DNA of 64,000 nucleotides. Source: Eledone cirrhosa (taxonomy: Eukaryota). Below the pieces are notes generated by a model, which had not been told where the DNA came from, ran no database searches, and saw only the letters and a program-made list of their open reading frames with translations. The position numbers and the translations under genes are program-made. Below are positions 1 through 39,616 of the stretch, one piece after another; positions within the stretch are counted from its first letter, which is position 1, and each line of letters opens with the position of its first letter. Location: positions 366,730,001 to 366,794,000 of the forward strand of contig OZ024743.1 in assembly GCA_964016885.1 (NCBI GenBank), written 5' to 3'.

Positions 1-3000
1 CACTACTACTACCATTACTACAACTCCCACCATTACCACTACTACTACCATTACTACAACTTCCTCCATTACCACTACTACTACCATTACTACAACTTCC
101 TCCATTACCACTACTACTACCATTACTACAACTCCCACCATTACCACTACTACTACCATTACTACAACTTCCTCCATTACCACTACTACTACCATTGCCA
201 CTACTACTACCATTACTACAACTTCCTCCATTACCACTACTACTACCATTACTACAACTCCCACCATTACCACTACTACTACCATTACTACAACTTCCTC
301 CATTACCACTACTACTACCATTACCACTACTACTACCATTGCCACTACTACTACCATTACTACAACTCCCACCATTACCACTACTACTACCATTACTACA
401 ACTTCCTCCATTACCACTACTACTACCATTGCCACTACTACTACCATTGCCACTACTACTACCATTACTACAACTCCCACCATTACCACTACTACTACCA
501 TTACTACAACTTCCACCATTACCACTACTACTACCATTACTACAACTCCCACCGTTACCACTACTACTAGCATTACTACAACTACCACCGTTACCACTAC
601 TACTACCATTACTACAACTCCCACCATTACCACTACTACTACCATTACTACAACTTCCTCCATTACCACTACTACTACCATTACCACTACTACTACCATT
701 ACTACAACTACCACCATTACCACTACTACTACCATTACTACAACTTCCTCCATTACCACTACTACTACCATTACTACAACTCCCACCGTTACCACTACTA
801 CTACCATTACTACAACTCCCACTGTTACCACTACTACTACCATTACTACAACTTCCACCATTACCACTACTACCACCATTACTATAACTACCACCGTTAC
901 CACTACTACTACCATTACTACAACTTCCACCATTACCACTACTACTACCGTTACTACAACACCCACCATTACCACTACTACTACCATTACTACAACTTCC
1001 TCCATTACCACTACTACTACCATTACTACAACTTCCACCGTTACCACTACTACTACCATTACTACAACTTCCACCGTTACCACTACTACTACCATTACTA
1101 CAACTTCCTCCATTACCACTACTACTACCATTACTACAACTTCCACCGTTACCACTACTACTACCATTACTACAACTTCCTCCATTACCACTACTACTAC
1201 CGTTACTACAACTTCCTCCATTACCACTACTACTACCATTACTACAACTTCCACCATTACCACTACTACTACCATTACTACAACTCCCACCGTTACCACT
1301 ACTACTACCATTACTACAACTCCCACCATTACCATTACTACTACCATTACTACAACTCCCACCATTACCACTACTACTACCATTACTACAACTTCCACCG
1401 TTACCACTACTACTACCATTACTACAACTTCCACTACTACTACTACCGTTACCACTACTACTACCATTACTACAACTCCCACCGTTACCACTACTACTAC
1501 CATTACTACAACTCCCACCATTACCACTACTACTACCATTACTACAACTCCCACCATTACCACTACTACTACCACTACTACAACTTCCACCGTTACCACT
1601 ACTACTACCATTACTACAACTACCACCGTTACCACTACTACTACCATTACTACAACTTCCACCGTTACCACTACTACTACCATTACTACAACTTCCACCG
1701 TTACCACTACTACTACCATTACTACAACTCCGACCGTTACCACTGCTACTACCATTACTACAACTACCACCGTTACCACTACTACTACTACCATTACTAC
1801 AACTTCCACCATTGCCACTACTACTACCGTTACTACAACTTCCTCCATTACCACTACTACTACCATTACTACAACTTCCACCATTGCCACTACTACTACC
1901 ATTACTACAACTTCCACCGTTACCACTGCTACTACCATTACTACAACTTCCACCGTTACCACTACTACCACCGTTACCACTACTACTACCATTACTACAA
2001 CTTCCACCGTTACCACTGCTACTACCATTACTACAACTTCCACCGTTACCACTACTACTACCATTACTACAACTACCACCGTTACCACTACTACTACCAT
2101 TACTACAACTTCCACCGTTACCACTACTACTACCATTACTACTACTACTCCCATTACTACAACTTCCACCATTACCATTACTACTACCATTACCACTACT
2201 ACTACCATTACTACAACTTCCACCGTTACCACTACTACAACCATTACTACAACTTCCACTACTACTACTACCGTTACCACTACTACTACCATTACTACAA
2301 CTCCCACCGTTACCACTACTACTACCATTACTACAACTCCCACCATTACCACTACTACTACCATTACTACAACTCCGACCGTTACCACTACTACTACCAT
2401 TACTACAACTCCCACCGTTACCACTGCTACTACCATTACTATAACTCCCACCATTACCACTACTACTACCATTACTACAACTCCCACCGTTACCACTGCT
2501 ACTACCATTACTACAACTCCCACCATTACCACTGCTACTACCATTACTACAACTCCACCATTACCACTACTACTACCATTACTACAACTTCCACCATTAC
2601 CACTACTACTACCATTACTACAACTCCCACCATTACCACTGCTACTACCGTTACTACAACTCCGACCGTTACCACTACTACTACCATTACTACAACTCCC
2701 ACCGTTACCACTACTACTACCATTACTACAACTTCCACCATTACCACTACTACTCCCATTACTACAACTCCCACCATTACCACTACTACTACCATTACTA
2801 CAACTCCCACCGTTACCACTGCTACTACCATTACTACAACTCCCACCGTTACCACTACTACTACCATTACTACAACTCCCACCGTTACCACTACTACTAC
2901 CATTACTACAACTCCCACCATTACCACTACTACTACCATTACTACAACTTCCAACGTTACCACTACTACTACCATTACTACAACTCCGACCGTTACCACT

Positions 3001-6000
3001 ACTACTACCATTACTACAACTCCCACCGTTACCACTGCTACTACCATTACTACAACTCCCACCGTTACCACTACTACTACCATTACTACAACTCCCACCG
3101 TTACCACTACTACTAACATTACTACAACTCCCACCGTTACCACTACTACTACCATTACTACAACTACCACCGTTACCACTACTACTACCATTACTACAAC
3201 TACCACCGTTACCACTACTACTACCGTTACTACAACTCCCACCATTACCACTACTACTACCATTACTACAACTCCGACCGTTACCACTACTACTACCATT
3301 ACTACAACTACCACCGTTACCACTACTACTACCATTACTACAACTACCACCGTTACCACTACTACTACCATTACTACAACTTCCACCGTTACCACTACTA
3401 CTACCATTACTACAACTCCGACCGTTACCACTACTACTACCATTACTACAACTTCCACCATTGCCACTACTACTACCGTTACTACAACTTCCTCCATTAC
3501 CACTACTACTACCATTACTACAACTTCCACCGTTACCACTACTACTACCATTACTACAACTCCAACCATTACCACTACTACTACCATTACTACAACTCCA
3601 ACCATTACCACTACTACTACCATTACTACAACTTCCTCCATTACCACTACTACTACCATTACTACAACTCCAACCATTACCACTACTACTACCATTACTA
3701 CAACTTCCACCATTGCCACTACTACTACCGTTACTACAACTTCCTCCATTACCACTACTACTACCGTTACCACTACTACTACCATTACTACAACTCCAAC
3801 CATTACCACTACTACTACCATTACTACAACTTCCACCATTGCCACTACTACTACCGTTACTACAACTTCCTCCATTACCACTGCTACTACCATTACTACA
3901 ACTTCCACCGTTACCACTACTACTACCATTACTACAACTTCCACCATTGCCACTACTACTACCGTTACTACAACTTCCTCCATTACCACTACTACTACCA
4001 TTACTACAACTCCAACCATTACCACTACTACTACCATTACTACAACTTCCACCATTGCCACTACTACTACCGTTACTACAACTTCCTCCATTACCACTAC
4101 TACTACCATTACTACAACTTCCACCGTTACCACTACTACTACCATTACTACAACTCCAACCATTACCACTACTACTACCATTACTACAACTTCCACCATT
4201 GCCACTACTACTACCATTACTACAACTTCCACCGTTACCACTGCTACTACCATTACTACAACTTCCACCGTTACCACTACTACTACCATTACTACAACTA
4301 CCACCGTTACCACTACTACTACCATTACTACAACTTCCACCGTTACCACTGCTACTACCATTACTACAACTTCCACCGTTACCACTACTACTACCATTAC
4401 TACAACTACCACCGTTACCACTACTACTACCATTACTACAACTTCCACCGTTACCACTACTACTACCATTACTACTACTACTCCCATTACTACAACTTCC
4501 ACCGTTACCACTACTACTACCGTTACTACAACTTCCACCGTTACCACTACTACTACCATTACTACAACTCCCACCGTTACCACTACTACTACCGTTACTA
4601 CAACTCCCACCATTACCACTACTACTACCATTACTACAACTACCACCGTTACCACTACTACTACCATTACTACAACTCCCACCGTTACCACTACTACTAC
4701 CGTTACTACAACTCCCACCATTACCACTACTACTACCATTACTACAACTACCACCGTTACCACTACTACTACCATTACTACAACTTCCACCGTTACCACT
4801 ACTACTACCATTACTACAACTCCCACCGTTACCACTACTACTACCGTTACTACAACTCCCACCATTACCACTACTACTACCATTACTACAACTACCACCG
4901 TTACCACTACTACTACCATTACTACAACTCCCACCGTTACCACTACTACTACCGTTACTACAACTTCCACCGTTACCACTACTACTACCGTTACTACAAC
5001 TTCCACCGTTACCACTACTACTACCATTACTACAACTTCCACCATTACCACTACTACTACCATTACTACAACTTCCACCATTACCACTACTACTACCGTT
5101 ACTACAACTTCCACCGTTACCACTACTACTACCATTACTACAACTTCCACCGTTACCACTACTACTACCCTTACTACAACTTCCACCGTTACCACTACTA
5201 CTACCGTTACCACTACTACTACCATTACTACAACTTCCACCGTTACCACTACTACTACCATTACTACAACTTCCACCGTTACCACTACTACTACCATTAC
5301 TACAACTCCCACCATTACCACTACTACTACCGTTACTACAACTTCCACCGTTACCACTACTACTACCATTACTACAACTTCCACCGTTACCACTACTACT
5401 ACCGTTACCACTACTACTACCGTTACTACAACTTCCACCGTTACTACAACTCCCACCGTTACCACTACTACTACCATTACTACAACTTCCACCATTACCA
5501 CTACTACTACCATTACTACAACTCCCACCGTTACCACTGCTACTACCATTACTACAACTCCCACCGTTACCACTACTACTACCATTACTACAACTCCCAC
5601 CGTTACCACTGCTACTACCATTACTACAACTCCCACCGTTACCACTACTACTACCATTACTACAACTCCCACCGTTACCACTGCTACTACCATTACTACA
5701 ACTTCCACCGTTACCACTACTACTACCATTACTACAACTTCCACCATTGCCACTACTACTACCGTTACTACAACTTCCTCCATTACCACTACTACTACCA
5801 TTACTACAACTCCCACCGTTACCACTGCTACTACCATTACTACAACTCCCACCGTTACCACTGCTACTACCATTACTACAACTCCCACCGTTACCACTAC
5901 TACTACCATTACTACAACTCCCACCGTTACCACTACTACTACCATTACTACAACTCCCACCGTTACCACTGCTACTACCATTACTACAACTTCCACCGTT

Positions 6001-9000
6001 ACCACTACTACTACCATTACTACAACTTCCACCATTGCCACTACTACTACCATTACTACAACTCCCACCGTTACCACTACTACTACCATTACTACAACTC
6101 CCACCGTTACCACTGCTACTACCATTACTACAACTTCCACCGTTACCACTACTACTACCATTACTACAACTTCCACCATTACCACTACTACTACCATTAC
6201 TACAACTCCCACCGTTACCACTGCTACTACCATTACTACAACTCCAACCATTACCACTACTACTACCATTACTACAACTTCCACCATTGCCACTACTACT
6301 ACCATTACTACAACTTCCACCATTACCACTACTACTACCATTACTACAACTCCCACCGTTACCACTGCTACTACCATTACTACAACTCCCACCGTTACCA
6401 CTGCTACTACCATTACTACAACTCCCACCGTTACCACTGCTACTACCATTACTACAACTTCCACCATTGCCACTACTACTACCGTTACTACAACTTCCTC
6501 CATTACCACTACTACTACCATTACTACAACTCCAACCATTACCACTACTACTACCATTACTACAACTTCCACCATTGCCACTACTACTACCATTACTACA
6601 ACTTCCACCATTACCACTACTACTACCATTACTACAACTCCCACCGTTACCACTGCTACTACCATTACTACAACTCCCACCGTTACCACTGCTACTACCA
6701 TTACTACAACTTCCACCGTTACCACTACTACTACCATTACTACAACTTCCACCATTGCCACTACTACTACCGTTACTACAACTTCCTCCATTACCACTAC
6801 TACTACCATTACTACAACTCCAACCATTACCACTACTACTACCATTACTACAACTTCCACCATTGCCACTACTACTACCGTTACTACAACTTCCTCCATT
6901 ACCACTACTACTACCATTACTACAACTTCCACCGTTACCACTACTACTACCATTACTACAACTCCAACCATTACCACTACTACTACCATTACTACAACTC
7001 CAACCATTACCACTACTACTACCATTACTACAACTTCCTCCATTACCACTACTACTACCATTACTACAACTCCAACCATTACCACTACTACTACCATTAC
7101 TACAACTTCCACCATTGCCACTACTACTACCGTTACTACAACTTCCTCCATTACCACTACTACTACCGTTACCACTACTACTACCATTACTACAACTCCA
7201 ACCATTACCACTACTACTACCATTACTACAACTTCCACCATTGCCACTACTACTACCGTTACTACAACTTCCTCCATTACCACTGCTACTACCATTACTA
7301 CAACTTCCACCGTTACCACTACTACTACCACTACTACTACCATTACTACAACTCCCACCGTTACCACTACTACTACCATTACTACAACTTCCACCGTTAC
7401 CACTACTACTACCATTACTACAACTCCCACCGTTACCACTACTACTACCATTACTACAACTTCCACCGTTACCACTACTACTACCATTACTACAACTCCC
7501 ACCATTACCACTACTACTACCGTTACTACAACTTCCTCCATGACCACTACACTACTACCATTACTACAACTTCCTCCATTACCACTACTACTACCATTAC
7601 TACAACTCCCACCGTTACCACTACTACTACCATTACTACAACTCCCACCATTACCACTACTACTACCATTACTACAATTCCTCCATTACCACTACTACTA
7701 CCATTACTACAACTCCCACCATTACCAACTACTACTACCATTACTACAACTTCCTCCATTACCACTACTACTACCATTACTACAACTTCCTCCATTACCA
7801 CTACTACTACCATTACTACAACTACCACCATTACCACTACTACTACCATTACTACAACTACCACCATTACCACTACTACTACCATTACTACAACTCCCAC
7901 CATTACCACTACTACTACCATTACTACAACTTCCTCCATTACCACTACTACTACCATTACTACAACTTCCTCCATTACCACTACTACTACCATTACTACA
8001 ACTACCACCATTACCACTACTACTACCATTACTACAACTTCCTCCATTACCACTACTACTACCATTACTACAACTCCCACCGTTACCACTACTACTACCA
8101 TTACTACAACTCCCACCATTACCACTACTACTACCATTACTACAACTTCCTCCATTACCACTACTACTACCATTACTACAACTCCCACCATTACCACTAC
8201 TACTACCATTACTACAACTTCCTCCATTACCACTACTACTACCATTACTACAACTCCCACCGTTACCACTACTACTACCATTACTACAACTCCCACCATT
8301 ACCACTACTACTACCATTACTACAACTTCCTCCATGACCACTACTACTACCATTACTACAACTTCCTCCATTACCACTACTACTACCATTACTACAACTC
8401 CCACCGTTACCACTACTACTACCATTACTACAACTCCCACCATTACCACTACTACTACCATTACTACAATTCCTCCATTACCACTACTACTACCATTACT
8501 ACAACTCCCACCATTACCACTACTACTACCATTACTACAACTTCCTCCATTACCACTACTACTACCATTACTACAACTTCCTCCATTACCACTACTACTA
8601 CCATTACTACAACTACCACCATTACCACTACTACTACCATTACTACAACTACCACCATTACCACTACTACTACCATTACTACAACTTCCTCCATTACCAC
8701 TACTACTACCATTACTACAACTTCCTCCATTACCACTACTACTACCATTACTACAACTCCCACCATTACCACTACTACTACCATTACTACAACTTCCTCC
8801 ATTACCACTACTACTACCATTACTACAACTTCCTCCATTACCACTACTACTACCATTACTACAACTCCCCACCGTTACCACTACTACTACCATTACTACA
8901 ACTCCCACCATTACCACTACTACTACCATTACTACAACTTCCTCCATTACCACTACTACTACCATTACTACAACTTCCTCCATTACCACTACTACTACCA

Positions 9001-12000
9001 TTACTACAACTCCCACCATTACCACTACTACTACCATTACTACAACTCCTCCATTACCACTACTACTCCATTGCCACTACTACTACCATTACTACAACTT
9101 CCTCCATTACCACTACTACTACCATTACTACAACTCCCACCATTACCACTACTACTACCATTACTACAACTTCCTCCATTACCACTACTACTACCATTAC
9201 CACTACTACTACCATTGCCACTACTACTACCATTACTACAACTCCACCATTACCACTACTACTACCATTACTACAACTTCCTCCAATTACCACTACTACT
9301 ACCATTGCCACTACTACTACCATTGCCACTACTACTACCATTACTACAACTCCCACCATTACCACTACTACTACCATTACTACAACTTCCACCATTACCA
9401 CTACTACTACCATTACTACAACTCCCACCGTTACCACTACTACTAGCATTACTACAACTACCACCGTTACCACTACTACTACCATTACTACAACTCCCAC
9501 CATTACCACTACTACTACCATTACTACAACTTCCTCCATTACCACTACTACTACCATTACCACTACTACTACCATTACTACAACTACCACCATTACCACT
9601 ACTACTACCATTACTACAACTTCCTCCATTACCACTACTACTACCATTACTACAACTCCCACCGTTACCACTACTACTACCATTACTACAACTCCCACTG
9701 TTACCACTACTACTACCATTACTACAACTTCCACCATTACCACTACTACCACCATTACTATAACTACCACCGTTACCACTACTACTACCATTACTACAAC
9801 TTCCACCATTACCACTACTACTACCGTTACTACAACACCCACCATTACCACTACTACTACCATTACTACAACTTCCTCCATTACCACTACTACTACCATT
9901 ACTACAACTTCCACCGTTACCACTACTACTACCATTACTACAACTTCCACCGTTACCACTACTACTACCATTACTACAACTTCCTCCATTACCACTACTA
10001 CTACCATTACTACAACTTCCACCGTTACCACTACTACTACCATTACTACAACTTCCTCCATTACCACTACTACTACCGTTACTACAACTTCCTCCATTAC
10101 CACTACTACTACCATTACTACAACTTCCACCATTACCACTACTACTACCATTACTACAACTCCCACCGTTACCACTACTACTACCATTACTACAACTCCC
10201 ACCATTACCATTACTACTACCATTACTACAACTCCCACCATTACCACTACTACTACCATTACTACAACTTCCACCGTTACCACTACTACTACCATTACTA
10301 CAACTTCCACTACTACTACTACCGTTACCACTACTACTACCATTACTACAACTCCCACCGTTACCACTACTACTACCATTACTACAACTCCCACCATTAC
10401 CACTACTACTACCATTACTACAACTCCCACCATTACCACTACTACTACCACTACTACAACTTCCACCGTTACCACTACTACTACCATTACTACAACTACC
10501 ACCGTTACCACTACTACTACCATTACTACAACTTCCACCGTTACCACTACTACTACCATTACTACAACTTCCACCGTTACCACTACTACTACCATTACTA
10601 CAACTCCGACCGTTACCACTGCTACTACCATTACTACAACTACCACCGTTACCACTACTACTACTACCATTACTACAACTTCCACCATTGCCACTACTAC
10701 TACCGTTACTACAACTTCCTCCATTACCACTACTACTACCATTACTACAACTTCCACCATTGCCACTACTACTACCATTACTACAACTTCCACCGTTACC
10801 ACTGCTACTACCATTACTACAACTTCCACCGTTACCACTACTACCACCGTTACCACTACTACTACCATTACTACAACTTCCACCGTTACCACTGCTACTA
10901 CCATTACTACAACTTCCACCGTTACCACTACTACTACCATTACTACAACTACCACCGTTACCACTACTACTACCATTACTACAACTTCCACCGTTACCAC
11001 TACTACTACCATTACTACTACTACTCCCATTACTACAACTTCCACCATTACCATTACTACTACCATTACCACTACTACTACCATTACTACAACTTCCACC
11101 GTTACCACTACTACAACCATTACTACAACTTCCACTACTACTACTACCGTTACCACTACTACTACCATTACTACAACTCCCACCGTTACCACTACTACTA
11201 CCATTACTACAACTCCCACCATTACCACTACTACTACCATTACTACAACTCCGACCGTTACCACTACTACTACCATTACTACAACTCCCACCGTTACCAC
11301 TGCTACTACCATTACTATAACTCCCACCATTACCACTACTACTACCATTACTACAACTCCCACCGTTACCACTGCTACTACCATTACTACAACTCCCACC
11401 ATTACCACTGCTACTACCATTACTACAACTCCACCATTACCACTACTACTACCATTACTACAACTTCCACCATTACCACTACTACTACCATTACTACAAC
11501 TCCCACCATTACCACTGCTACTACCGTTACTACAACTCCGACCGTTACCACTACTACTACCATTACTACAACTCCCACCGTTACCACTACTACTACCATT
11601 ACTACAACTTCCACCATTACCACTACTACTCCCATTACTACAACTCCCACCATTACCACTACTACTACCATTACTACAACTCCCACCGTTACCACTGCTA
11701 CTACCATTACTACAACTCCCACCGTTACCACTACTACTACCATTACTACAACTCCCACCGTTACCACTACTACTACCATTACTACAACTCCCACCATTAC
11801 CACTACTACTACCATTACTACAACTTCCAACGTTACCACTACTACTACCATTACTACAACTCCGACCGTTACCACTACTACTACCATTACTACAACTCCC
11901 ACCGTTACCACTGCTACTACCATTACTACAACTCCCACCGTTACCACTACTACTACCATTACTACAACTCCCACCGTTACCACTACTACTAACATTACTA

Positions 12001-15000
12001 CAACTCCCACCGTTACCACTACTACTACCATTACTACAACTACCACCGTTACCACTACTACTACCATTACTACAACTACCACCGTTACCACTACTACTAC
12101 CGTTACTACAACTCCCACCATTACCACTACTACTACCATTACTACAACTCCGACCGTTACCACTACTACTACCATTACTACAACTACCACCGTTACCACT
12201 ACTACTACCATTACTACAACTACCACCGTTACCACTACTACTACCATTACTACAACTTCCACCGTTACCACTACTACTACCATTACTACAACTCCGACCG
12301 TTACCACTACTACTACCATTACTACAACTTCCACCATTGCCACTACTACTACCGTTACTACAACTTCCTCCATTACCACTACTACTACCATTACTACAAC
12401 TTCCACCGTTACCACTACTACTACCATTACTACAACTCCAACCATTACCACTACTACTACCATTACTACAACTCCAACCATTACCACTACTACTACCATT
12501 ACTACAACTTCCTCCATTACCACTACTACTACCATTACTACAACTCCAACCATTACCACTACTACTACCATTACTACAACTTCCACCATTGCCACTACTA
12601 CTACCGTTACTACAACTTCCTCCATTACCACTACTACTACCGTTACCACTACTACTACCATTACTACAACTCCAACCATTACCACTACTACTACCATTAC
12701 TACAACTTCCACCATTGCCACTACTACTACCGTTACTACAACTTCCTCCATTACCACTGCTACTACCATTACTACAACTTCCACCGTTACCACTACTACT
12801 ACCATTACTACAACTTCCACCATTGCCACTACTACTACCGTTACTACAACTTCCTCCATTACCACTACTACTACCATTACTACAACTCCAACCATTACCA
12901 CTACTACTACCATTACTACAACTTCCACCATTGCCACTACTACTACCGTTACTACAACTTCCTCCATTACCACTACTACTACCATTACTACAACTTCCAC
13001 CGTTACCACTACTACTACCATTACTACAACTCCAACCATTACCACTACTACTACCATTACTACAACTTCCACCATTGCCACTACTACTACCATTACTACA
13101 ACTTCCACCGTTACCACTGCTACTACCATTACTACAACTTCCACCGTTACCACTACTACTACCATTACTACAACTACCACCGTTACCACTACTACTACCA
13201 TTACTACAACTTCCACCGTTACCACTGCTACTACCATTACTACAACTTCCACCGTTACCACTACTACTACCATTACTACAACTACCACCGTTACCACTAC
13301 TACTACCATTACTACAACTTCCACCGTTACCACTACTACTACCATTACTACTACTACTCCCATTACTACAACTTCCACCGTTACCACTACTACTACCGTT
13401 ACTACAACTTCCACCGTTACCACTACTACTACCATTACTACAACTCCCACCGTTACCACTACTACTACCGTTACTACAACTCCCACCATTACCACTACTA
13501 CTACCATTACTACAACTACCACCGTTACCACTACTACTACCATTACTACAACTCCCACCGTTACCACTACTACTACCGTTACTACAACTCCCACCATTAC
13601 CACTACTACTACCATTACTACAACTACCACCGTTACCACTACTACTACCATTACTACAACTTCCACCGTTACCACTACTACTACCATTACTACAACTCCC
13701 ACCGTTACCACTACTACTACCGTTACTACAACTCCCACCATTACCACTACTACTACCATTACTACAACTACCACCGTTACCACTACTACTACCATTACTA
13801 CAACTCCCACCGTTACCACTACTACTACCGTTACTACAACTTCCACCGTTACCACTACTACTACCGTTACTACAACTTCCACCGTTACCACTACTACTAC
13901 CATTACTACAACTTCCACCATTACCACTACTACTACCATTACTACAACTTCCACCATTACCACTACTACTACCGTTACTACAACTTCCACCGTTACCACT
14001 ACTACTACCATTACTACAACTTCCACCGTTACCACTACTACTACCCTTACTACAACTTCCACCGTTACCACTACTACTACCGTTACCACTACTACTACCA
14101 TTACTACAACTTCCACCGTTACCACTACTACTACCATTACTACAACTTCCACCGTTACCACTACTACTACCATTACTACAACTCCCACCATTACCACTAC
14201 TACTACCGTTACTACAACTTCCACCGTTACCACTACTACTACCATTACTACAACTTCCACCGTTACCACTACTACTACCGTTACCACTACTACTACCGTT
14301 ACTACAACTTCCACCGTTACTACAACTCCCACCGTTACCACTACTACTACCATTACTACAACTTCCACCATTACCACTACTACTACCATTACTACAACTC
14401 CCACCGTTACCACTGCTACTACCATTACTACAACTCCCACCGTTACCACTACTACTACCATTACTACAACTCCCACCGTTACCACTGCTACTACCATTAC
14501 TACAACTCCCACCGTTACCACTACTACTACCATTACTACAACTCCCACCGTTACCACTGCTACTACCATTACTACAACTTCCACCGTTACCACTACTACT
14601 ACCATTACTACAACTTCCACCATTGCCACTACTACTACCGTTACTACAACTTCCTCCATTACCACTACTACTACCATTACTACAACTCCCACCGTTACCA
14701 CTGCTACTACCATTACTACAACTCCCACCGTTACCACTGCTACTACCATTACTACAACTCCCACCGTTACCACTACTACTACCATTACTACAACTCCCAC
14801 CGTTACCACTACTACTACCATTACTACAACTCCCACCGTTACCACTGCTACTACCATTACTACAACTTCCACCGTTACCACTACTACTACCATTACTACA
14901 ACTTCCACCATTGCCACTACTACTACCATTACTACAACTCCCACCGTTACCACTACTACTACCATTACTACAACTCCCACCGTTACCACTGCTACTACCA

Positions 15001-25100: not shown

Positions 25101-28100
25101 ACTACTACCATTACTACAACTCCCACCGTTACCACTGCTACTACCATTACTACAACTCCCACCGTTACCACTACTACTACCATTACTACAACTCCCACCG
25201 TTACCACTGCTACTACCATTACTACAACTCCCACCGTTACCACTACTACTACCATTACTACAACTCCCACCGTTACCACTGCTACTACCATTACTACAAC
25301 TCCCACCGTTACCACTACTACTACCATTACTACAACTCCCACCATTACCACTACTACTACCATTACTACAACTCCAACCATTACCACTACTACTACCATT
25401 ACTACAACTTCCACCGTCACCACTACTACTACCATTACTACAACTCCCACCATTACCACTACTACTACCGTTACTACAACTTCCTCCATTACCACTACTA
25501 CTACCATTACTACAACTCCCACCGTTACCACTGCTACTACCATTACTACAACTCCCACCGTTACCACTACTACTACCATTACTACAACTCCCACCATTAC
25601 CACTACTACTACCATTACTACAACTCCAACCATTACCACTACTACTACCATTACTACAACTTCCACCGTCACCACTACTACTACCATTACTACAACTCCC
25701 ACCATTACCACTACTACTACCGTTACTACAACTTCCTCCATTACCACTACTACTACCATTACTACAACTCCCACCGTTACCACTGCTACTACCATTACTA
25801 CAACTACCACCGTTACCACTACTACTACCGTTACTACAACTTCCTCCATTACCACTACTACTACCATTACTACAACTCCGACCGTTACCACTGCTACTAC
25901 CATTACTACAACTACCACCGTTACCACTACTACTACCATTACTACAACTACCACCGTTACCACTACTACTACCGTTACTACAACTTCCTCCATTACCACT
26001 ACTACTACCATTACTACAACTTCCACCATTGCCACTACTACTACCGTTACTACAACTTCCTCCATTACCACTACTACTACCATTACTACAACTTCCACCA
26101 TTGCCACTACTACTACCGTTACTACAACTTCCTCCATTACCACTACTACTACCATTACTACAACTTCCACCGTTACCACTACTACTACCATTACTACAAC
26201 TCCAACCATTACCACTACTACTACCATTACTACAACTCCAACCATTACCACTACTACTACCATTACTACAACTTCCTCCATTACCACTACTACTACCATT
26301 ACTACAACTCCAACCATTACCACTACTACTACCATTACTACAACTTCCACCATTGCCACTACTACTACCGTTACTACAATTTCCTCCATTACCACTACTA
26401 CTACCATTACTACAACTTCCACCGTTACCACTACTACTACCATTACTACAACTCCAACCATTACCACTACTACTACCATTACTACAACTTCCACCATTGC
26501 CACTACTACTACCGTTACTACAACTTCCTCCATTACCACTACTACTACCGTTACTACAACTCCCACCATTACCACTACTACTACCGTTACTACAATTCCC
26601 ACCATTACCACTACTACTACCGTTACCACTACTACTACCATTACTACAACTCCCACCGTTACCACTACTACTACCATTACTACAACTCCCACTGTTACCA
26701 CTACTACTACCATTACTACAACTACCACCGTTACCACTACTACTACCGTAACTACAACTTCCACCGTTACTACAACTTCCACCATTGCCACTACTACTAC
26801 CGTTACTACAACTCCCACCGTTACCACTGCTACTACCATTACTACAACTCCCACCGTTACCACTACTACTACCATTACTCCAACTCCCACTGTTACCACT
26901 ACTACTACCATTACTACAACTCCCACCATTACCACTACTACTACCATTACTACAACTACCACCGTTACCACTACTACTACCGTTACTACAACTTCCACCG
27001 TTACCACTACTACTACCATTACTACAACTCCCACCGTTACCACTACTACTACCGTTACTACAACTCCCACCATTACCACTACTACTACCATTACTACAAC
27101 TACCACCGTTACCACTACTACTACCATTACTACAACTTCCACCATTACCACTACTACTACCATTACTACAACTACCACCGTTACCACTACTACTACCATT
27201 ACTACAACTTCCACCGTTACCACTACTACTACCGTTACTACAACTCCCACCATTACCACTACTACTACCATTACTACAACTACCACCGTTACCACTACTA
27301 CTACCATTACTACAACTCCCACCGTTACCACTACTACTACCGTTACTACAACTTCCACCGTTACCACTACTACTACCGTTACCACTACTACTACCGTAAC
27401 TACAACTCCCACCGTTACCACTACTACTACCATTACTACAACTCACACCATTACCACTACTACTACCATTACTACAACTTCCACCATTACCACTACTACT
27501 ACCGTTACCACTACTACTACCATTACTACAACTTCCACCGTTACCACTACTACTACCATTACTACAACTTCCAACGTTACCACTACTACTACCGTTACTA
27601 CAACTCCCACCGTTACCACTACTGCTACCATTACTACAACTTCCACCGTTACCACTACTACTACCATTACTACAACTCCCACCATTACCACTACTACTAC
27701 CGTTACCACTACTACTACCATTACTACAACTTCCACCGTTACCACTACTACTACCATTACCACTACTACTACCATTACTACAACTTCCACCGTTACCACT
27801 ACTACTACCATTACCACTACTACTACCATTACTACAACTTCCAACGTTACCACTACTACTACCATTACTACAACTCCCACCATTACCACTACTACTACCA
27901 TTACTACAACTTCCACCGTTACCACTACTACTACCATTACCACTACTACTTCCATTACTACAACTCCCACCGTTACCACTACTACTACCATTACTACAAC
28001 TCCCACCATTACCACTACTACTACCATTACCACTACTACTACCATTACTACAACTTCCACCGTTACCACTACTACTTCCATTACTACAACTCCCACCGTT

Positions 28101-31100
28101 ACCACTACTACTACCATTACCACTACTACTACCATTACTACAACTTCCACCGTTACCACTACTACTACCATTACCACTACTACTACCATTACTACAACTT
28201 CCACCGTTACCACTACTACTTCCATTACTACAACTCCCACCATTACCACTACTACTACCATTACCACTACTACTACCATTACTACAACTTCCACCGTTAC
28301 CACTACTACTACCATTACCACTACTACTACCATTACTACAACTCCCACCGTTACCACTGCTACTACCATTACTACAACTCCCACCGTTACCACTACTACT
28401 ACCATTACTACAACTCCCACCGTTACCACTGCTACTACCATTACTACAACTCCCACCGTTACCACTGCTACTACCATTACTACAACTCCCACCGTTACCA
28501 CTACTACTACCATTACTCCAACTCCCACTGTTACCACTACTACTACCATTACTACAACTCCCACCATTACCACTACTACTACCATTACTACAACTACCAC
28601 CGTTACCACTACTACTACCGTTACCACTACTACTACCATTACTACAACTTCCACCGTTACCACTACTACTACCGTTACTACAACTCCCACCATTACCACT
28701 ACTACTACCATTACTACAACTACCACCGTTACCACTACTACTACCATTACTACAACTTCCACCATTACCACTACTACTACCATTACTACAACTTCCACCG
28801 TTACCACTACTACTACCATTACTACAACTCCCACCGTTACCACTACTACTACCGTTACTACAACTCCCACCATTACCACTACTACTACCATTACTACAAC
28901 TACCACCGTTACCACTACTACTACCATTACTACAACTACCACCGTTACCACTACTACTACCATTACTACAACTCCCACCGTTACCACTACTACTACCGTT
29001 ACTACAACTACCACCGTTACCACTACTACTACCATTACTACAACTCCCACCATTACCACTACTACTACCGTTACTACAACTTCCACCGTTACCACTACTA
29101 CTACCGTAACTACAACTCCCACCGTTACCACTACTACTACCATTACTACAACTCACACCATTACCACTACTACTACCATTACTACAACTTCCACCATTAC
29201 CACTACTACTACCGTTACCACTACTACTACCATTACTACAACTTCCACCGTTACCACTACTACTACCATTACTACAACTCCCACCGTTACCACTACTGCT
29301 ACCATTACTACAACTTCCACCGTTACCACTACTACTACCATTACTACAACTCCCACCATTACCACTACTACTACCGTTACCACTACTACTACCATTACTA
29401 CAACTTCCACCGTTACCACTACTACTACCATTACCACTACTACTACCATTACTACAACTTCCACCGTTACCACTACTACTACCATTACCACTACTACTAC
29501 CATTACTACAACTTCCAACGTTACCACTACTACTACCATTACTACAACTCCCACCATTACCACTACTACTACCATTACTACAACTTCCACCGTTACCACT
29601 ACTACTACCATTACCACTACTACTTCCATTACTACAACTCCCACCGTTACCACTACTACTACCATTACTACAACTCCCACCATTACCACTACTACTACCA
29701 TTACCACTACTACTACCATTACTACAACTTCCACCGTTACCACTACTACTACCATTACCACTACTACTTCCATTACTACAACTCCCACCGTTACCACTAC
29801 TACTACCATTACCACTACTACTACCATTACTACAACTTCCACCGTTACCACTACTACTACCATTACCACTACTACTTCCATTACTACAACTCCCACCATT
29901 ACCACTACTACTACCATTACCACTACTACTACCATTACTACAACTTCCACCGTTACCACTACTACTACCATTACCACTACTACTACCATTACTACAACTC
30001 CCACCATTACCACTACTACTACCATTACCACTACTATTACCGTTACTACAACTCCCACCATTACCACTACTACTACCGTTACCACTACTACTACCATTAC
30101 TACAACTTCCACCGTTACCACTACTACTACCATTACTACAACTTCCACGATTACCACTACTACTACCGTTACTACAACTCCCACCGTTACCACTACTACT
30201 ACCATTACTACAACTTCCACCGTTACCACTACTACTCCCATTACTACAACTCCCACCATTACCACTACTACTACCATTACCACTACTATTACCGTTACTA
30301 CAACTCCCACCATTACCACTACTACTACCGTTACCACTACTACTACCATTACTACAACTTCCACGATTACCACTACTACTACCATTACTACAACTCCCAC
30401 CATTACCACTACTACTACCATTACTACAACTTCCACCATTACCACTACTACTACCGTTACTACAACTCCCACCATTACCACTACTACTCCCATTACTACA
30501 ACTCCCACCATTACCACTACTACTCCCATTACTACAACTTCCACCATGACCACTACTACTACCATTACTACAACTCCCACCATTACCACTACTACTACCA
30601 TTACCACTACTATTACCGTTACTACAACTCCCACCATTACCACTACTACTACCATTACCACTACTATTACCGTTACTACAACTTCCACCATTACCACTAC
30701 TACTACCATTACTACAACTCCCACCATTACCACTACTACTACCATTACCACTACTATTACCGTTACTACAACTCCCACCATTACCACTACTACTACCGTT
30801 ACCACTACTACTACCATTACTACAACTTCCACCGTTACCACTACTACTACCATTACTACAACTTCCACGATTACCACTACTACTACCGTTACTACAACTC
30901 CCACCGTTACCACTACTACTACCATTACTACAACTTCCACCGTTACCACTACTACTCCCATTACTACAACTTCCACCATTACCACTACTACTACCATTAC
31001 TACAACTTCCACCATTACCACTACTACTACCGTTACTACAACTCCCACCATTACCACTACTACTACCATTACTACAACTTCCACGATTACCACTACTACT

Positions 31101-34100
31101 ACCGTTACTACAACTCCCACCGTTACCACTACTACTACCATTACTACAACTTCCACCGTTACCACTACTACTCCCATTACTACAACTTCCACCATTACCA
31201 CTACTACTACCATTACTACAACTCCCACCATTACCACTACTACTACCATTACTACAACTTCCACCATTACCACTACTACTACCATTACTACAACTCCCAC
31301 CGTTACCACTACTACTACCATTACTACAACTTCCACCATTACCACTACTACTACCACTACTACTACCATTACTACAACTCCCACCATTACCACTACTACT
31401 ACCATTACTACAACTCCCACCGTTACCACTACTACTACCATTACTACAACTTCCACGATTACCACTACTACTACCATTACTACAACTTCCACCATTACCA
31501 CTACTACTACCATTACTACAACTTCCACCATTACCACTACTACTACCATTACTACAACTTCCACCATTACCACTACTACTACCATTACTACAACTTCCAC
31601 CATTACCACTACTACTACCACTACTACTACCATTACTACAACTTCCACCATTACCACTACTACTCCCATTACTACAACTTCCACCATTACCACTACTACT
31701 ACCATTACTACAACTCCCACCATTACCACTACTACTACCATTACTACAACTTCCACCGTTACCACTACTACTACCATTACTACAACTCCCACCGTTACCA
31801 CTACTACTACCATTACTACAACTTCCACCATTACCACTACTACTACCATTACTACAACTTCCACCGTTACCACTACTACTACCGTTACTACAACTCCCAC
31901 CATTACCACTACTACTACCATTACTACAACTCCCACCATTACCACTACTACTACCGTTACTACAACTCCCACCATTACCACTACTACTACCATTACTACA
32001 ACTCCCACCATTACCACTACTACTACCATTACTACAACTTCCACCGTTACCACTACTACTACCGTTACTACAACTTCCACCGTTACCACTACTACTACCA
32101 TTACTACAACTTCCACCATTACCACTACTACTACCATTACTACAACTTCCACCGTTACCACTACTACTACCGTTACTACAACTCCCGCCATTACCACTAC
32201 TACTACCGTTACCACTACTACTACCATTACTACAACTTCCACCGTTACCACTACTACTACCATTAATACAACTTCCACGATTACCACTACTACTACCATT
32301 ACTACAACTCCCACCATTACCACTACTACTACCATTACTACAACTCCCACCATTACCACTACTACTACCATTACTACAACTTCCACCGTTACCACTACTA
32401 CTACCGTTACTACAACTCCCGCCATTACCACTACTACTACCGTTACCACTACTACTACCATTACTACAACTTCCACCGTTACCACTACTACTACCATTAC
32501 TACAACTTCCACCATTACCACTACTACTACCGTTACTACAACTCCCACCATTACCACTACTACTACCGTTACTACAACTTCCACCGTTACCACTACTACT
32601 ACCATTACTACAACTTCCACCATTACCACTACTACTACCGTTACTACAACTCCCACCATTACCACTACTACTACCGTTACTACAACTTCCACCGTTACCA
32701 CTACTACTACCATTACTACAACTCCCACCATTACCACTACTACTACCATTACTACAACTTCCACCGTTACCACTGCTACTACCATTACTACAACTTCCAC
32801 CGTTACCACTACTACTACCATTACTACAACTCCCACCATTACCACTACTACTACCATTACTACAACTTCCACCGTTACCACTACTACTACCATTACTACA
32901 ACTTCCACCGTTACCACTGCTACTACCATTACTACAACTTCCTCCATTACCACTACTACTACCATTACTACAACTCCCACCATTACCACTACTACTACCG
33001 TTACTACAACTCCCACCATTACCACTACTACTACCATTACTACAACTCCCACCATTACCACTACTACTACCATTACTACAACTCCCACCATTACCACTAC
33101 TACTACCATTACTACAACTCCCACCATTACCACTACTACTACCATTACTACAACTCCCACCATTACCACTACTACTACCGTTACTACAACTTCCACCGTT
33201 ACCACTACTACTACCATTACTACAACTTCCACCGTTACCACTACTACTACCATTACTACAACTCCCACCATTACCACTACTACTACCGTTACTACAACTT
33301 CCACCGTTACCACTACTACTACCATTACTACAACTTCCACCGTTACCACTACTACTACCATTACTACAACTTCCACCGTTACCACTACTACTACCGTTAC
33401 TACAACTTCCACCGTTACCACTACTACTACCATTACTACAACTTCCACCGTTACCACTACTACTACCGTTACTACAACTTCCACCGTTACCACTACTACT
33501 ACCATTACTACAACTTCCACCGTTACCACTACTACTACCGTTACTACAACTCCCACCGTTACCACTACTACTACCGTTACTACAACTTCCACCGTTACCA
33601 CTACTACTACCATTACTACAACTTCCACCGTTACCACTACTACTACCGTTACTACAACTTCCACCGTTACCACTACTACTACCATTACTACAACTCCCAC
33701 CGTTACCACTACTACTACCGTTACTACAACTTCCACCGTTACCACTACTACTACCATTACTACAACTTCCACCGTTACCACTACTACTACCGTTACTACA
33801 ACTTCCACCGTTACCACTACTACTACCATTACTACAACTTCCACCGTTACCACTACTACTACCGTTACTACAACTTCCACCGTTACCACTACTACTACCA
33901 TTACTACAACTTCCACCGTTACCACTACTACTACCGTTACTACAACTCCCACCGTTACCACTACTACTACCGTTACTACAACTTCCACCGTTACCACTAC
34001 TACTACCATTACTACAACTTCCACCGTTACCACTACTACTACCGTTACTACAACTTCCACCGTTACCACTACTACTACCATTACTACAACTCCCACCGTT

Positions 34101-36103
34101 ACCACTACTACTACCGTTACTACAACTTCCACCGTTACCACTACTACTACCATTACTACAACTTCCACCGTTACCACTACTACTACCGTTACTACAACTT
34201 CCACCGTTACCACTACTACTACCATTACTACAACTTCCACCGTTACCACTACTACTACCATTACTACAACTTCCACCGTTACCACTACTACTACCGTTAC
34301 TACAACTTCCACCGTTACCACTACTACTACCATTACTACAACTCCCACCGTTACCACTACTACTACCGTTACTACAACTTCCACCGTTACCACTACTACT
34401 ACCATTACTACAACTTCCACCGTTACCACTACTACTACCGTTACTACAACTTCCACCGTTACCACTACTACTACCATTACTACAACTTCCACCGTTACCA
34501 CTACTACTACCGTTACTACAACTCCCACCATTACCACTACTACTACCGTTACCACTACTACTACCATTACTACAACTTCCACCGTTACCACTACTACTAC
34601 CATTAATACAACTTCCACGATTACCACTACTACTACCGTTACTACAACTCCCACCGTTACCACTACTACTACCATTACTACAACTCCCACCGTTACTACA
34701 ACTTCCACCGTTACCACTACTACTACCATTACTACAACTTCCACCGTTACCACTACTACTACCGTTACTACAACTCCCACCATTACCACTACTACTACCG
34801 TTACTACAACTCCCACCATTACCACTACTACTACCGTTACTACAACTTCCACCGTTACCACTACTACTACCATTACTACAACTTCCACGATTACCACTAC
34901 TACTACCGTTACTACAACTTCCACCGTTACCACTACTACTACCATTACTACAACTCCCACCGTTACCACTACTACTACCGTTACTACAACTCCCACCATT
35001 ACCACTACTACTACCGTTACTACAACTTCCACCGTTACCACTACTACTACCATTACTACAACTTCCACGATTACCACTACTACTACCGTTACTACAACTT
35101 CCACCATTACCACTACTACTACCGTTACTACAACTTCCACCGTTACCACTACTACTACCATTACTACAACTCCCACCGTTACCACTACTACTACCGTTAC
35201 TACAACTCCCACCGTTACCACTACTACTACCATTACTACAACTTCCACCGTTACCACTACTACTACCATTACTACAACTCCCACCATTACCACTACTACT
35301 ACCATTACTACAACTTCCACCGTTACCACTACTACTACCATTACTACAACTTCCACCATTACCACTACTACTACCATTACTACAACTCCCACCATTACCA
35401 CTACTACTACCATTACTACAACTTCCACCATTACCACTACTACTACCATTACTACAACTTCCACCGTTACCACTACTACTACCATTACTACAACTCCCAC
35501 CATTACCACTACTACTACCATTACTACAACTCCCACCATTACCACTACTACTACCGTTACTACAACTTCCACCGTTACCACTACTACTACCATTACTACA
35601 ACTTCCACGATTACCACTACTACTACCGTTACTACAACTTCCACCGTTACCACTACTACTACCGTTACCACTACTACTACCGTTACTACAACTCCCACCG
35701 TTACCACTACTACTACCATTACTACAACTTCCACCGTTACCACTACTACTACCGTTACCACTACTACTACCGTTACTACAACTTCCACCGTTACCACTAC
35801 TACTACCATTACTACAACTCCCACCGTTACCACTACTACTACCATTACTACAACTCCCACCGTTACCACTACTACTACCGTTACTACAACTTCCACCGTT
35901 ACCACTACTACTACCATTACTACAACTCCCACCGTTACCACTACTACTACCATTACTACAACTTCCACCGTTACCACTACTACTACCATTACTACAACTC
36001 CCACCGTTACCACTACTACTACCATTACTACAATTTCCACGATTACCACTACTACTACCGTTACTACAACTTCCACCGTTACCACTACTACTACCATTAC
36101 TAC
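11433..36103 (+). CDS. Hypothetical mucin-like Thr/Pro/Ser (PTS) repeat ORF; longest indel-free stretch of the Thr register, which ends at TAG 37412-37414 after a 1-nt indel near 36103
   Basis: About 8,200 stop-free codons of TTTTT[I/V]TTT[P/S/T]T[I/V]; the stop sits exactly at the array end. No start or signal peptide is in the window, and openness is expected from the repeat composition. Confidence 0.25.
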
Positions 36104-37444
36104 ACTCCCACCGTTACCACTACTACTACCGTTACCACTACTACTACCATTACTACAACTTCCACGATTACCACTACTACTACCGTTACTACAACTCCCA
36201 CCGTTACCACTACTACTACCATTACTACAACACCCACCATTACCACTACTACTACCATTACTACAACTTCCACCGTTACCACTACTACTCCCATTACTAC
36301 AACTTCCACCATTACTACAACACCCACCATTACCACTACCGTTACTACAACTCCCACCATTACCACTACTACTACCATTACTACAACTCCCACCATTACC
36401 ACTACTACTACCATTACTACAACTCCCACCATTACCACTACTACTACCATTACTACAACTTCCACCGTTACCACTACTACTACCATTACTACAACTTCCA
36501 CCGTTACCACTACTACTCCCATTACTACAACTTCCACGATTACCACTACTACTACCGTTACTACAACTTCCACCATTACCACTACTACTACCACTACTAC
36601 AACTTCCACCGTTACCACTACTACTACCATTACTACAACTTCCACGATTACCACTACTACTACCGTTACTACAACTCCCACCGTTACCACTACTACTACC
36701 ATTACTACAACTTCCACCATTACCACTACTACTCCCATTACTACAACTTCCACCATTACCACTACTACTACCATTACTACAACTTCCACCATTACCACTA
36801 CTACTACCATTACTACAACACCCACTATTACCACTACTACTACCGTTACTACAACTTCCACCATTACCACTACTACTACCGTTACTACAACTTCCACCGT
36901 TACCACTACTACTACCATTACTACAACTTCCACCGTTACCACTACTACTACCATTACTACAACTTCCACCGTTACCACTACTACTACCATTACTACAACT
37001 TCCACCATTACCACTACTACTACCATTACTACAACTTCCACCATTACCACTACTACTACCATTACTACAACTTCCACCGTTACCACTACTACTACCATTA
37101 CTACAACTCCCACCATTACCACTACTACTACCATTACTACAACTTCCACCATTACCACTACTACTCCCATTACTACAACTTCCACCATTACCACTACTAC
37201 TACCATTACTACAACTTCCACCATTACCACTACTACTACCACTACTACAACTTCCACCATTACCACTACTACTCCCATTACTACAACTCCCACCATTACC
37301 ACTACTACTACCATTACTACAACTCCCACCATTACCACTACTACTACCATTACTACAACTCCCACCATTACCACTACTACTACCATTACTACAACTCCCA
37401 CCATTACCACTTAGGCCACAATCTTCCATCTGTTCCCTGTACAT
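11433..37444 (-). CDS. Hypothetical Gly/Ser/Asn/Cys repeat ORF (GGSCSNGSSSGN)n, entered from unique sequence MYREQMEDCGLS; one 1-nt indel near 36103
   Basis: The commonest unit variants are synonymous in this frame (GGN, AAY, AGY), and the frame is open from ATG 37444/37429 into the array. No independent evidence of expression. Confidence 0.25.
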
Positions 37445-37613
37445 ATTACTAATATGTCAAAGTCATGCCAGAATGGAAAGCAGTTGTAAAATAATCATCA
37501 TCATTATCATCATAAATATCAACATACATTTTTTTTTTCTCTATCTTAGTTTTATCAAAATATTGTAATTAAGCGGTCACTAATACAAACTAGGGACATT
37601 GGTTGCTGTATTT

Positions 37614-37823
37614 ATAATAATAATAATGAAATTATTGTGTACAGTGCTCAGGTGCACTACAACTCATCAAAGGTGCATGTATAGTACATAGAATAATGTA
37701 CAAATGTCAGGAAAATGAACAATGTATGAGTCATGATATAATAATAATAACAATAATGAAATATTGTGTACAGTGCCCAGGTGCACCACAACTCATCAAA
37801 AAAGTCACATGTACAATACATAG
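37614..37823. repeat. Two diverged ~80-bp direct repeats with (AAT)n heads, probably 3' ends of a retroposon on the minus strand
   Basis: AATAATGAAAT(T)ATTGTGTACAGTGC[T/C]CAGGTGCAC[T/C]ACAACTCATCAAA...TACATAG at 37614-37691 and 37741-37823. Confidence 0.7.
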
Positions 37824-38602
37824 TTGTTATGTTATTAGGTTGTTATTATGTTGCTGTATTGCAATTGTCATTGTTTATCCCTAGGCTAGCCTTGATGAAG
37901 CAGACTTAGGATCAAAGTGGCTCTAAGTGTGACCATCTCAGCTTTTATTCAGACATAATGGTAGAGTGTGATTTAAAGGAGATCTATTGATTCTATTAGT
38001 TCAAGTAACCACAAAGAGTCTCCCCCATTAGCTAGGTTATCTTGTTATTATTTGTGGGTGTTGAAATTATGGTTGTGCTGTTGAGAAGTCTCAGTCAACT
38101 CTTCACTCCTTATGGAAGTAGTAGTAAAATAAAGTGGGTTACATGTATGGTATATCAAGTATTTAAGATATTCTAGGTGTCTAGTATTTGATCAGTAGTC
38201 AAGTCATAGCTGGCATATTCATACTGAGTTAAGCTGCATTATTATTTTGGACTTAAAACACCAAGTACATTTTACAAATTGTCAAGAAATCCAGTAAATA
38301 AGATTTAGTTGGTACATTAAACAAACAAAAGATTTACAGAGTAATTCAGTTAACTGAAAGTATCATTTCAGTCATCCATGGTTGTTTATTTACAGAGTAA
38401 TATTTGTTTCCCTTTTCGTATAGTTACTGTGTATTTACTTGTTTATATTACAAATACTGTATTGGTTTTAGGTTTTAAACTGATAATAAATAATAATAAT
38501 AATGAATTTCAACGTTTTATCTTTTTCTAATATTGGGAGTGAAATTACCAGGAAGGAAATTGACTGGCTACCATATAATAATATATTCAATCATTATAAG
38601 TA

Positions 38603-38772
38603 TCGGTAGAGGGTCGGACGCCATGCTTTCCAGCATAGTTACGTCCCTTTACGATCTGAGTTCAAATCCCGCCGAGGTTGACTTTGCCTTTCATCCTTAC
38701 GGGGTCGATAAAATAAAGTACCAGTAATGCACTGGGTAATTGTTGGCCTTGTGCCTAAAGTAGAAACAATTA
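38603..38772 (+). mobile_element. tRNA-derived SINE (partial)
   Basis: B-box-like GAGTTCAAATCC followed by GACTTTGCCTTTCATCCTTACGGGGTCGATAAAATAAAGTACCAG, resembling conserved metazoan SINE cores. Confidence 0.75.
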
Positions 38773-38779
38773 TATTTAC

Positions 38780-39060
38780 AGGCCTGTCTGAAGAGGAATA
38801 GCAGTAATACTCCTGACCTTTGCAGCCCCGCTCAAACTAGTGAGACTGATGCAGTCAGTGTTCAGCTTGAACATAGGTAGCTCAATATCTGCAGGAAATA
38901 AATGTGGGTGAGGAGAGGAATTCCAGAAGGCTGCAGTTCTGGTGAGGAATGGGAGGAAGAAAGTATTTAATGCAGAAGCTAAAAAATGAGATGCAGTTGA
39001 GATGAGAAGAGAGGAGCTGAGTAGTTAGAATGAGTAAGACTTCTCATTCAGAGAAGCATA
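38780..39060 (-). mobile_element. 3' remnant of a CR1/Jockey-group LINE
   Basis: Minus-strand translation FLTRTAAFWNSSPHPHLFPADIELPMFKLN resembles the ORF2 C-terminal motif F.PRT...WNSLP...FP...L..FK. Confidence 0.55.
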
Positions 39061-39616
39061 AGATGTTGTTCTTGTTGAGAGAGAGAGAGAGAGAGAGAGA
39101 GCGAGCACATCCATAAGTTGAAAATTGAAATACTTTGCTTAGAGAATCATTATCAATGAATAGAATAGCTTTATTATATGTTGTGTAGGATGTTTGTATA
39201 TGTAACACCAAAACCATATATGGAAAAAGAGGTGAAGTTAACAGCTCAAATAAGTTTTCTATCAATGTTTACTCCATAACATTTATGTTGAATCAACTCC
39301 TACTTTAAATAACAATTAAGTTAAAGTGTATACCCAGCAAATTATAACACCATTTCAAGTTTTAAAAATTACAAGAACCACCTGTTTTAAAGTAATGGTC
39401 CAATTTACATCTATACTTATGATCCCAACAACACACAATATATTGAACTCAGGTCATCCCCAATACCAGCTTTTGTAATTATTCAGGACACATTTTATAT
39501 AAATATTACAGAATCCATGTTGAAATGCTAGTCATTGCTCTATTAACAAATGAAAAAAAAAGTTGGAATCAATAGAAAATAGATTATATTAGAAGTTGAA
39601 AGTTAGAAATACAAAC

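Follow-up and report, generated by a model that had tools for sequence, protein, structure and literature searches.

Can an essential cell-cycle gene be read and spliced across an intron that consists almost entirely of tandem repeat? The question is raised by a 64,000-nucleotide stretch of the Eledone cirrhosa genome (termed the window; G000:C4:366730001-366794000), which is part of a 379-Mb contig, at a distance of 12 Mb from the contig end, in a genome of 3.0 Gb. An array of 36-bp units, array A, occupies window positions 1-37411, and exons of the retinoblastoma gene RB1 are found to the right of it on the minus strand. A first-pass annotation of this DNA had proposed that an array of at least 37 kb fills an RB1 intron. 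This is borne out: the whole of array A is 52,767 bp long and accounts for 96% of RB1 intron 20 (55,090 bp). Coordinates outside the window are given in extended form, where 0 is the base left of position 1 and the genome position equals 366,730,000 plus the coordinate.

The RB1 protein of Octopus bimaculoides (P0015) maps exon by exon to the minus strand, from extended position 225526 to -36178. The splice-site-guided model of the gene displays 29 exons, 28 GT-AG introns and a 985 amino acid open reading frame with no internal stop codon, which argues against the truncated pseudogene that had been considered earlier. The model is identical to P0015 at 840 of 982 aligned residues (85.5%). Its identity to P0016, which is named retinoblastoma-associated protein, is 75.4%, and that to the RB-like protein P0001 is 27.9%. 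When single exons were used as queries, the matches were proteins of Octopus and Argonauta with 81-97% identity, in line with an octopod source. By these pairwise identities, rather than by a tree, the gene is classed as an intact RB1 orthologue that is nearer to RB1 than to RBL1/2. A profile search finds RB_A exon matches at window positions 60469-60645 and 62544-62687, and RB_B matches exon 21; thus RB_A and RB_B are in one intact open reading frame. A separate RBL gene on contig C12, the paralogue RBL1, covers about 43 kb and is uninterrupted at the site that corresponds to intron 20.

The window part of intron 20 is at positions 1-39616 on the minus strand, and the intron continues beyond the left edge of the window as far as exon 21. 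Exon 20 (39617-39681, minus strand) is 65 nt in length, has a translation that ends in ...CHLAFKRLSRLCESLEVSSEL and is followed by a weak phase-0 donor, CTG|GTTTGT. It had been described as the last traceable exon, with its end at ...EVSSEL, and the remaining exons had been expected left of position 1 since no continuation was seen in positions 37412-39616. The RB_B search does place exon 21 there, at -15474 to -15551 (G000:C4:366714449-366714526, minus strand). This exon has 78 nt, encodes TQKVW...RHLDQ and starts in phase 0. Exons 21-29 are all left of the window on the minus strand, and the stop codon is at G000:C4:366693822. The array had also been placed in the middle of pocket B. It is inside RB_B, but the split is at about position 30 of the 144 in the model, i.e. 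in the first third.

The locus was found in four sequencing runs of one study, and none of these is registered as RNA; three (X1-X3) are DNA from one sample. In the fourth run, X4, a contig of 2,976 nt (depth 10.4) contains exon sequence only: exons 23, 22 and 21 are matched by record positions 1514-1633, 1634-1738 and 1739-1817, respectively. A second comparison places record positions 1817-1883 of a contig of equal length and depth on exon 20. The length, the depth and the contiguous coordinates suggest that the two placements are of one contig. The comparison covered exons 20-23, four of the 29 RB1 exons. The exon boundaries agree with the model to within one or two letters, which could be assigned to either exon. 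The exon-only pattern indicates that X4 is likely RNA. Thus exons 20 and 21 are joined exactly across array A in a contig that is likely RNA-derived. A pseudogene or retrocopy was considered as the source of the spliced contig and rejected: among 23 candidates scored in the RB_B search nothing exceeded the cut-off other than the C12 RBL gene and the exon-wise matches to RB1 on C4, and no intronless copy was found.

The possibility that the array is mis-joined here was raised by the first-pass annotation. The X4 contig joins exons 21 and 20, and each of the three DNA runs has an 864-nt contig that passes with zero mismatches from exon 21 to 33 bases into array A; a mis-join does not accord with these contigs. 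The exon join also suggests that RNA polymerase II (Pol II) reads through array A. With a spliced form in existence, the array intronic and the gene intact, the RB1 pre-mRNA must carry the G/U-rich repeat, as had been claimed.

What kind of repeat is array A? Tandem Repeats Finder (TRF) reports a single 36-bp array in the window, at positions 1-37407, with 1,040 copies. With 120 kb of left flank added, the array is seen to reach 15.4 kb beyond the left edge of the window and to extend from -15355 to 37411 (G000:C4:366714645-366767411), with about 1,468 copies and no N. The exon 21 acceptor is 118 nt past the array, and 2,205 nt of unique or SINE-like (short interspersed element) DNA separate the exon 20 donor from it. 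The unit comprises two related 18-mers of ACT/ACC triplets, and the RB1 sense (minus) strand is 40% G and 31% T. When the array is cut into units, 1,274 of 1,403 are 36 bp and the others are mostly 54, 72, 48 or 18 bp. There are 59 distinct sequences among the 1,274 36-mers, with a mean divergence of 5.7%, and variant frequencies drift along the array. Exact repeats inside it are up to 5.8 kb in length, at offsets of 3.4-12.3 kb. All 365 exact genome matches to a 33-mer of the array are inside it. The same is true of 1,026 of 1,045 genome matches to a 20-mer, and the remaining 19 are comparable to the 27 matches of a control. Array A is a single-locus minisatellite and not a dispersed satellite family. 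It displays three of the features by which a single-locus minisatellite or variable number tandem repeat (VNTR) is recognized: variant head-to-tail units of at least 7 bp, one locus, and internal duplication and deletion.

The exact length of array A is that of the assembly. It is conceivable, but improbable, that the array is real and intronic and that false duplication or collapse has made its assembled length substantially wrong. An 8.9-kb block recurs in the array with a 5.8-kb exact match, and the right junction at 37411 is bridged by none of the DNA contigs listed, nor by any other contig listed. Against an error of this kind, the array is free of N gaps, no exact repeat in it is longer than 5.8 kb, 80% of its 2-kb words occur once, and the frequencies of the variants shift from one part of it to another. 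The left junction is bridged in all three DNA runs of the one sample, and the depth on the first unit is hundreds-fold over unique depth, a ratio that is not a copy number.

Intron 20 is not the only RB1 intron with a giant array. Array B is found right of the window at 101660-218501 (G000:C4:366831660-366948501), where 116.8 kb of 57/58-bp units lie inside intron 1 (132,622 bp). All 1,191 genome matches to a 30-mer of array B are local. Arrays A and B together make up 65% of the 262-kb RB1 span, which is 92 kb when both are subtracted; the remaining 26 introns range from 183 to 11,273 bp. A shared origin of the two arrays was rejected, as there is only a weak local match that was equalled in 20 of 500 shuffles, and they are treated as unrelated triplet-like units. 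Two smaller arrays are also present: intron 19 has, at window positions 44042-50200, a 6-kb compound array whose 144-bp units are nested in longer repeats, and there is a 1.2-kb array with a 32-bp unit in intron 13 at extended positions 64888-66119. RB1 thus carries arrays of 1.2, 6, 53 and 117 kb.

Can repeats of this size be silent in splicing? The first-pass annotation had pointed to over a thousand donor-like TG|GTAAT, TG|GTAAC and TG|GTAGT motifs, and these are indeed present (413 + 585 + 898 = 1,896 in the window and 2,729 in the whole array). Splice sites were scored with a small home-made matrix, with donors taken from the 28 of RB1 itself. The intron 20 donor is among the weakest, with 3.9 bits (RB1 donor range 2.6-12.8), and the GTG|GTAATG variant, which has 680 copies in array A, also scores 3.9 bits. 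To this extent the array motifs equal a weak real donor. Strong donors, however, are rarer than in an ordinary intron: sites of at least 5 bits occur at 0.51 per kb in array A, versus 3.0-3.5 per kb in ordinary introns. Acceptor-like sites of at least 3 bits were found at none of 7,558 AG dinucleotides on the sense strand of array A and none of 6,006 in array B, whereas ordinary introns have 5.1-6.6 per kb. The poly(A) signals AATAAA and ATTAAA are not found in array A or array B.

The array donor nearest to exon 20 is 2.2 kb away from it and beyond an in-frame stop codon. Since that donor is past the stop and acceptor-like and AGGT sites are lacking, array A, as scored with this matrix, supplies no pseudo-exon and no recursive site. 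Recursive splicing within array A was rejected because there is no AGGT on its sense strand; in array B there are 32 AGGT, none in an acceptor-like context. A three-tier G-quadruplex in the array was likewise rejected: there is no motif of four GGG runs, the G4Hunter mean is 0.64 and practically no window reaches 1.2. R-loops are possible, as the RNA would be G-rich.

The opposite strand of array A has unusual properties of its own. Read on the plus strand it encodes 73% Thr, together with Ile, Val, Ser and Pro, and the Thr frame has no stop codon in 17,580 codons. A single-frame stretch extends over 24.7 kb, and a TAG directly follows the last unit. The array could on these grounds be a repeat exon, (TTTSTITTTTTI)n, of a mucin-like gene nested antisense in RB1, and a nested antisense gene is known in human RB1 intron 17 (PMC2361346). 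The Thr frame, however, switches 18 times, nine of them through one copied variant with a 1-bp deletion. Distinct variants show 10 synonymous and 22 non-synonymous changes against 34:74 possible ones, which is the neutral ratio, and no common codon is one step from a stop. The plus strand of the array has no acceptor- or donor-like sites. At the left edge the sole ATG belongs to a different frame, and there is no sign of a signal peptide. Array B has 57/58-bp units with at least 563 stop codons in each frame. Array A is thus not one open frame under coding constraint, given the frame switches and the neutral ratio of variants, and the antisense mucin was rejected as extremely improbable.

Is the RB1 array a peculiarity of this gene? 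A non-random sample of 79 evenly spaced stretches of the genome (59 of 10 kb and 20 of 6 kb; 40 on C4, 20 of these within 12 Mb of the window) contained five that consist of a short-unit array from end to end; their units, of 7, 19, 34, 38 and 44 bp, are unrelated. This is 6% of the stretches (95% confidence interval (CI) 2-14%). Among the others, one displays the edge of a large array and one, L113 (G000:C4:316000001-316010000), is an array of a 1,578-bp unit with 97% identity. Four arrays were traced, with lengths of about 13 kb, about 25 kb, at least 44 kb and 299 kb. Two of three array patterns searched match one strand only, and the third, which is dispersed-repeat-like, matches both. By rough extrapolation there may be thousands of such arrays genome-wide, and the RB1 array appears to be one instance of a feature that is spread over the genome.

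The 299-kb array (G000:C4:361754577-362053659, L137-L140) has a 34-bp unit, and its 3,199 exact matches all share the same strand. To its right, after 50 nt, begins a segment that resembles an exon and has good AG/GT sites (L140:3710-3820); searches with this segment found no homologue and one repetitive, uninformative match. In the flanks of the four traced arrays 70 of 160 exon candidates were run, and none of these has a Pfam match above the cut-off. In L103 (G000:C4:146003342-146004941) there are seven 228-bp units that we take to resemble a polyubiquitin gene. The start of the L113 unit presumably resembles a tRNA gene.

A control set of 16 multi-exon genes (nine Cpn60/TCP1, four DNA polymerase B and three RNA polymerase large subunits; 286 kb) was confined to the domain parts of these genes, with intronless and scaffold matches excluded. 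Of its five largest gaps two hold arrays, and both are in one RNA polymerase largest-subunit gene (G000:C2:217909613-217962970, L189-L194) that has arrays of 13.2 kb (37-bp unit) and 6.6 kb (46-bp unit) between exons. From its motifs we take this gene to be Pol I-like. As two arrays are present in the RNA polymerase gene, intronic arrays are not peculiar to RB1, but RB1 is an extreme case. Array A, the 64888-66119 array and the L191:7077-7273 array stop 118, about 180 and about 195 nt, respectively, before a 3′ splice site; this is anecdotal, and array B and the compound repeat, unlike these three, do not end close before one. A family-B DNA polymerase gene is found twice, about 190 kb apart (G000:C2:355463350-355488600 and 355647465-355680557), with near-identical scores, and represents either a recent duplication or a false one.

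The explanation that we consider probable is that a single-locus array has grown neutrally in an RB1 intron by slippage and block duplication, is tolerated and is removed by ordinary splicing. A run of ACT/ACC triplets in an existing intron would have given rise to the 18-mer and then to the 36-mer. Growth may have proceeded by 18-bp steps and by duplication of 3.4-12.3-kb blocks; the pattern in which variants, including the 1-bp deletion, are copied is seen in the array, and the mechanism behind it is a presumed one. The 118 nt of the 3′ splice-site region and the 2.2 kb behind the donor are repeat-free. Pol II would read through the array, and the short exons 20 and 21 would be defined and joined by ordinary co-transcriptional splicing. 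The array would be tolerated because it has no acceptor and no poly(A) signal and because both splice-site regions are intact.

A by-product of the array is additional transcription time, which follows from its length alone. Elongation rates are borrowed from human and other cells and not from octopus, at 1.5 kb/min for human cells (PMC4032854) within a range of 1-5 kb/min (PMC4654234). At 1.5 kb/min array A is predicted to add about 35 min (from 11 min at 5 kb/min to 53 min at 1 kb/min), and arrays A and B together about 113 min. The intron delay suggested by the first-pass annotation thus holds as a prediction of time, and a regulatory role for it is hypothetical.

Could the arrays still have been selected as a timing or regulatory device? 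In that case only a long cell cycle would leave time for full-length RB1 mRNA, and the length of the arrays would be a tunable allele, perhaps with repeat-binding proteins like those of Drosophila Y-loop genes. With its 170 kb of repeat the transcription unit is almost three times as long (262 instead of 92 kb), and predicted RB1 transcription takes 174 versus 61 min at 1.5 kb/min. One cell-cycle gene has two unrelated giant arrays, both G-rich on the sense strand, and the control genes are compact. Control of pRB, however, is mainly via phosphorylation. Similar arrays are frequent in the genome, and given the first array a second one in a 92-kb unique span is not rare (about 0.2 expected, a rough estimate). 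Intron delay is an established principle (PMC4654234). Human RB1 is already 180 kb in length. A selected device of this type is unlikely. The same holds for a broader conjecture, to which we give little credence: that this octopod builds giant introns in a way of its own, from thousands of unrelated 10-300-kb single-locus minisatellites, many in essential genes and kept only if splicing-silent, and that the 170 kb at RB1 serve as a heritable, length-variable timer by which the G1 brake stays released when cell cycles are short.

Several points weigh against neutral growth and ordinary splicing. The splice evidence is a single contig from a single run that is not registered as RNA, and neutrality is something we infer. 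Both giant RB1 arrays share a G-rich sense strand. RB1 is an outlier: the 16 control gene stretches have no gap of more than 27 kb, and RBL1 is about 43 kb. The absent splice signals reflect just a few short units, so that filtering of arrays by splicing cannot be demonstrated. Nor do other intronic arrays suggest it, because they carry such sites: acceptor-like sites occur at 9.9 per kb in the intron 19 compound repeat, and donor-like sites at 21 per kb in the array of 46-bp units in the polymerase gene.

How does neutral growth of an intronic array compare with known systems? Human ABCA7 (25-bp unit) and CACNA1C (30-bp unit) contain single-locus intronic VNTRs (Course et al. 2021, PMC8327921, PMC6857246). 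As described in these sources, they are like the RB1 arrays in having a unit of tens of bases, one locus, interspersed variants, deletion and duplication, and an intronic position. The RB1 arrays of 53 and 117 kb are, however, about 5-10 times larger than the 10-kb VNTR given for ABCA7. On sequence features (unit variants, locus and duplications were compared) the RB1 arrays appear to agree with such VNTRs in all that were tested. No report of giant intronic minisatellites in cephalopods was found in the literature covered, which was incomplete. The introns of Octopus minor average 5.4 kb (PMC6279123).

A resemblance to the Drosophila Y-loop genes was proposed by the first-pass annotation. In the protein-coding genes kl-3 and kl-5 (PMC6508621, PMC11207136) an intron consists mostly of tandem repeat, which has to be transcribed and then removed by splicing, and the repeat intron of RB1 is likewise spliced out, with transcription through it indicated by the exon join. 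The likeness is a mechanical one. Y-loop genes are described as having megabase introns of simple satellite that form >99% of the locus, about 90 h of transcription in spermatocytes and dedicated RNA-binding proteins (PMC6508621, PMC11207136). Unlike these, the RB1 introns are 55 and 133 kb, the arrays are 65% of the locus, and the repeats are complex, single-locus 36- and 57/58-bp units in a cell-cycle gene that is not known to have a dedicated factor. RB1 is thus not a member of the Y-loop class in size, locus share or repeat type.

Human RB1 can be compared in length. It has 27 exons over 180 kb, with a 72-kb intron 17 in the pocket region (PMC2361346), and so resembles octopus RB1 in being a long gene with a very long pocket-region intron. 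The human intron has a different position, and that source does not speak of it as a tandem array. The RB1 lengths as such are therefore not unusual for this gene. Given the five array stretches among the 79 sampled, the two arrays of the RNA polymerase gene and this human intron, the earlier suggestion of something special to RB or of a need for dedicated splicing control is so far not supported. Human exon 20 presumably covers octopus exons 20 and 21.

The remaining RB1 exons are on the minus strand. Coding exon 1 is at G000:C4:366955357-366955526, and exons 1-14 are all right of the window. In the window are exon 15 (62552-62663) and exon 16 (60469-60614), both of pocket A, exon 17 (52324-52374), exon 18 (51784-51866) and exon 19 (50955-51121), which encodes the spacer. 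Exon 17 has a diverged tandem duplicate, including flanks, at 51955-52005. Both copies are 51 nt, phase 0 and flanked by AG/GT (HIQKIEHD...WKE and HYQKTEHD...RKE), and the duplicate, where pocket A ends, may be used as an alternative exon. Intron 19 contains a long interspersed element (LINE) at 40572-43682 (minus strand) with an intact 1,037 amino acid open reading frame (endonuclease, reverse transcriptase and PHD-like finger). An inverted 2.8-kb copy, 98.4% identical, is in intron 16 at about 53390-56200 (plus strand), and the LINE pair brackets exons 17-19.

The array in RB1 is a real and well-supported feature that is notable for its scale; it represents striking genome anatomy and not a new mechanism, with no function evident as yet. 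Because huge single-site repeats occur elsewhere in the genome, the arrays are probably passengers that the gene tolerates and not a special device for its control. In an animal only distantly related to Drosophila, 53 kb of almost pure minisatellite does not prevent the splicing of an essential cell-cycle gene. The finding also points to a little-described component of a cephalopod genome, of which about 6% (95% CI 2-14%, non-random sample) may consist of huge arrays with unrelated units, some in housekeeping genes; short-read assemblies likely miss these arrays. Since the array sequences are unique to their locus, they are usable as direct fluorescence in situ hybridization (FISH) probes for nascent RB1 RNA and as length markers. 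Such probes and markers make intron delay and the splicing of long introns testable in a cell-cycle gene.

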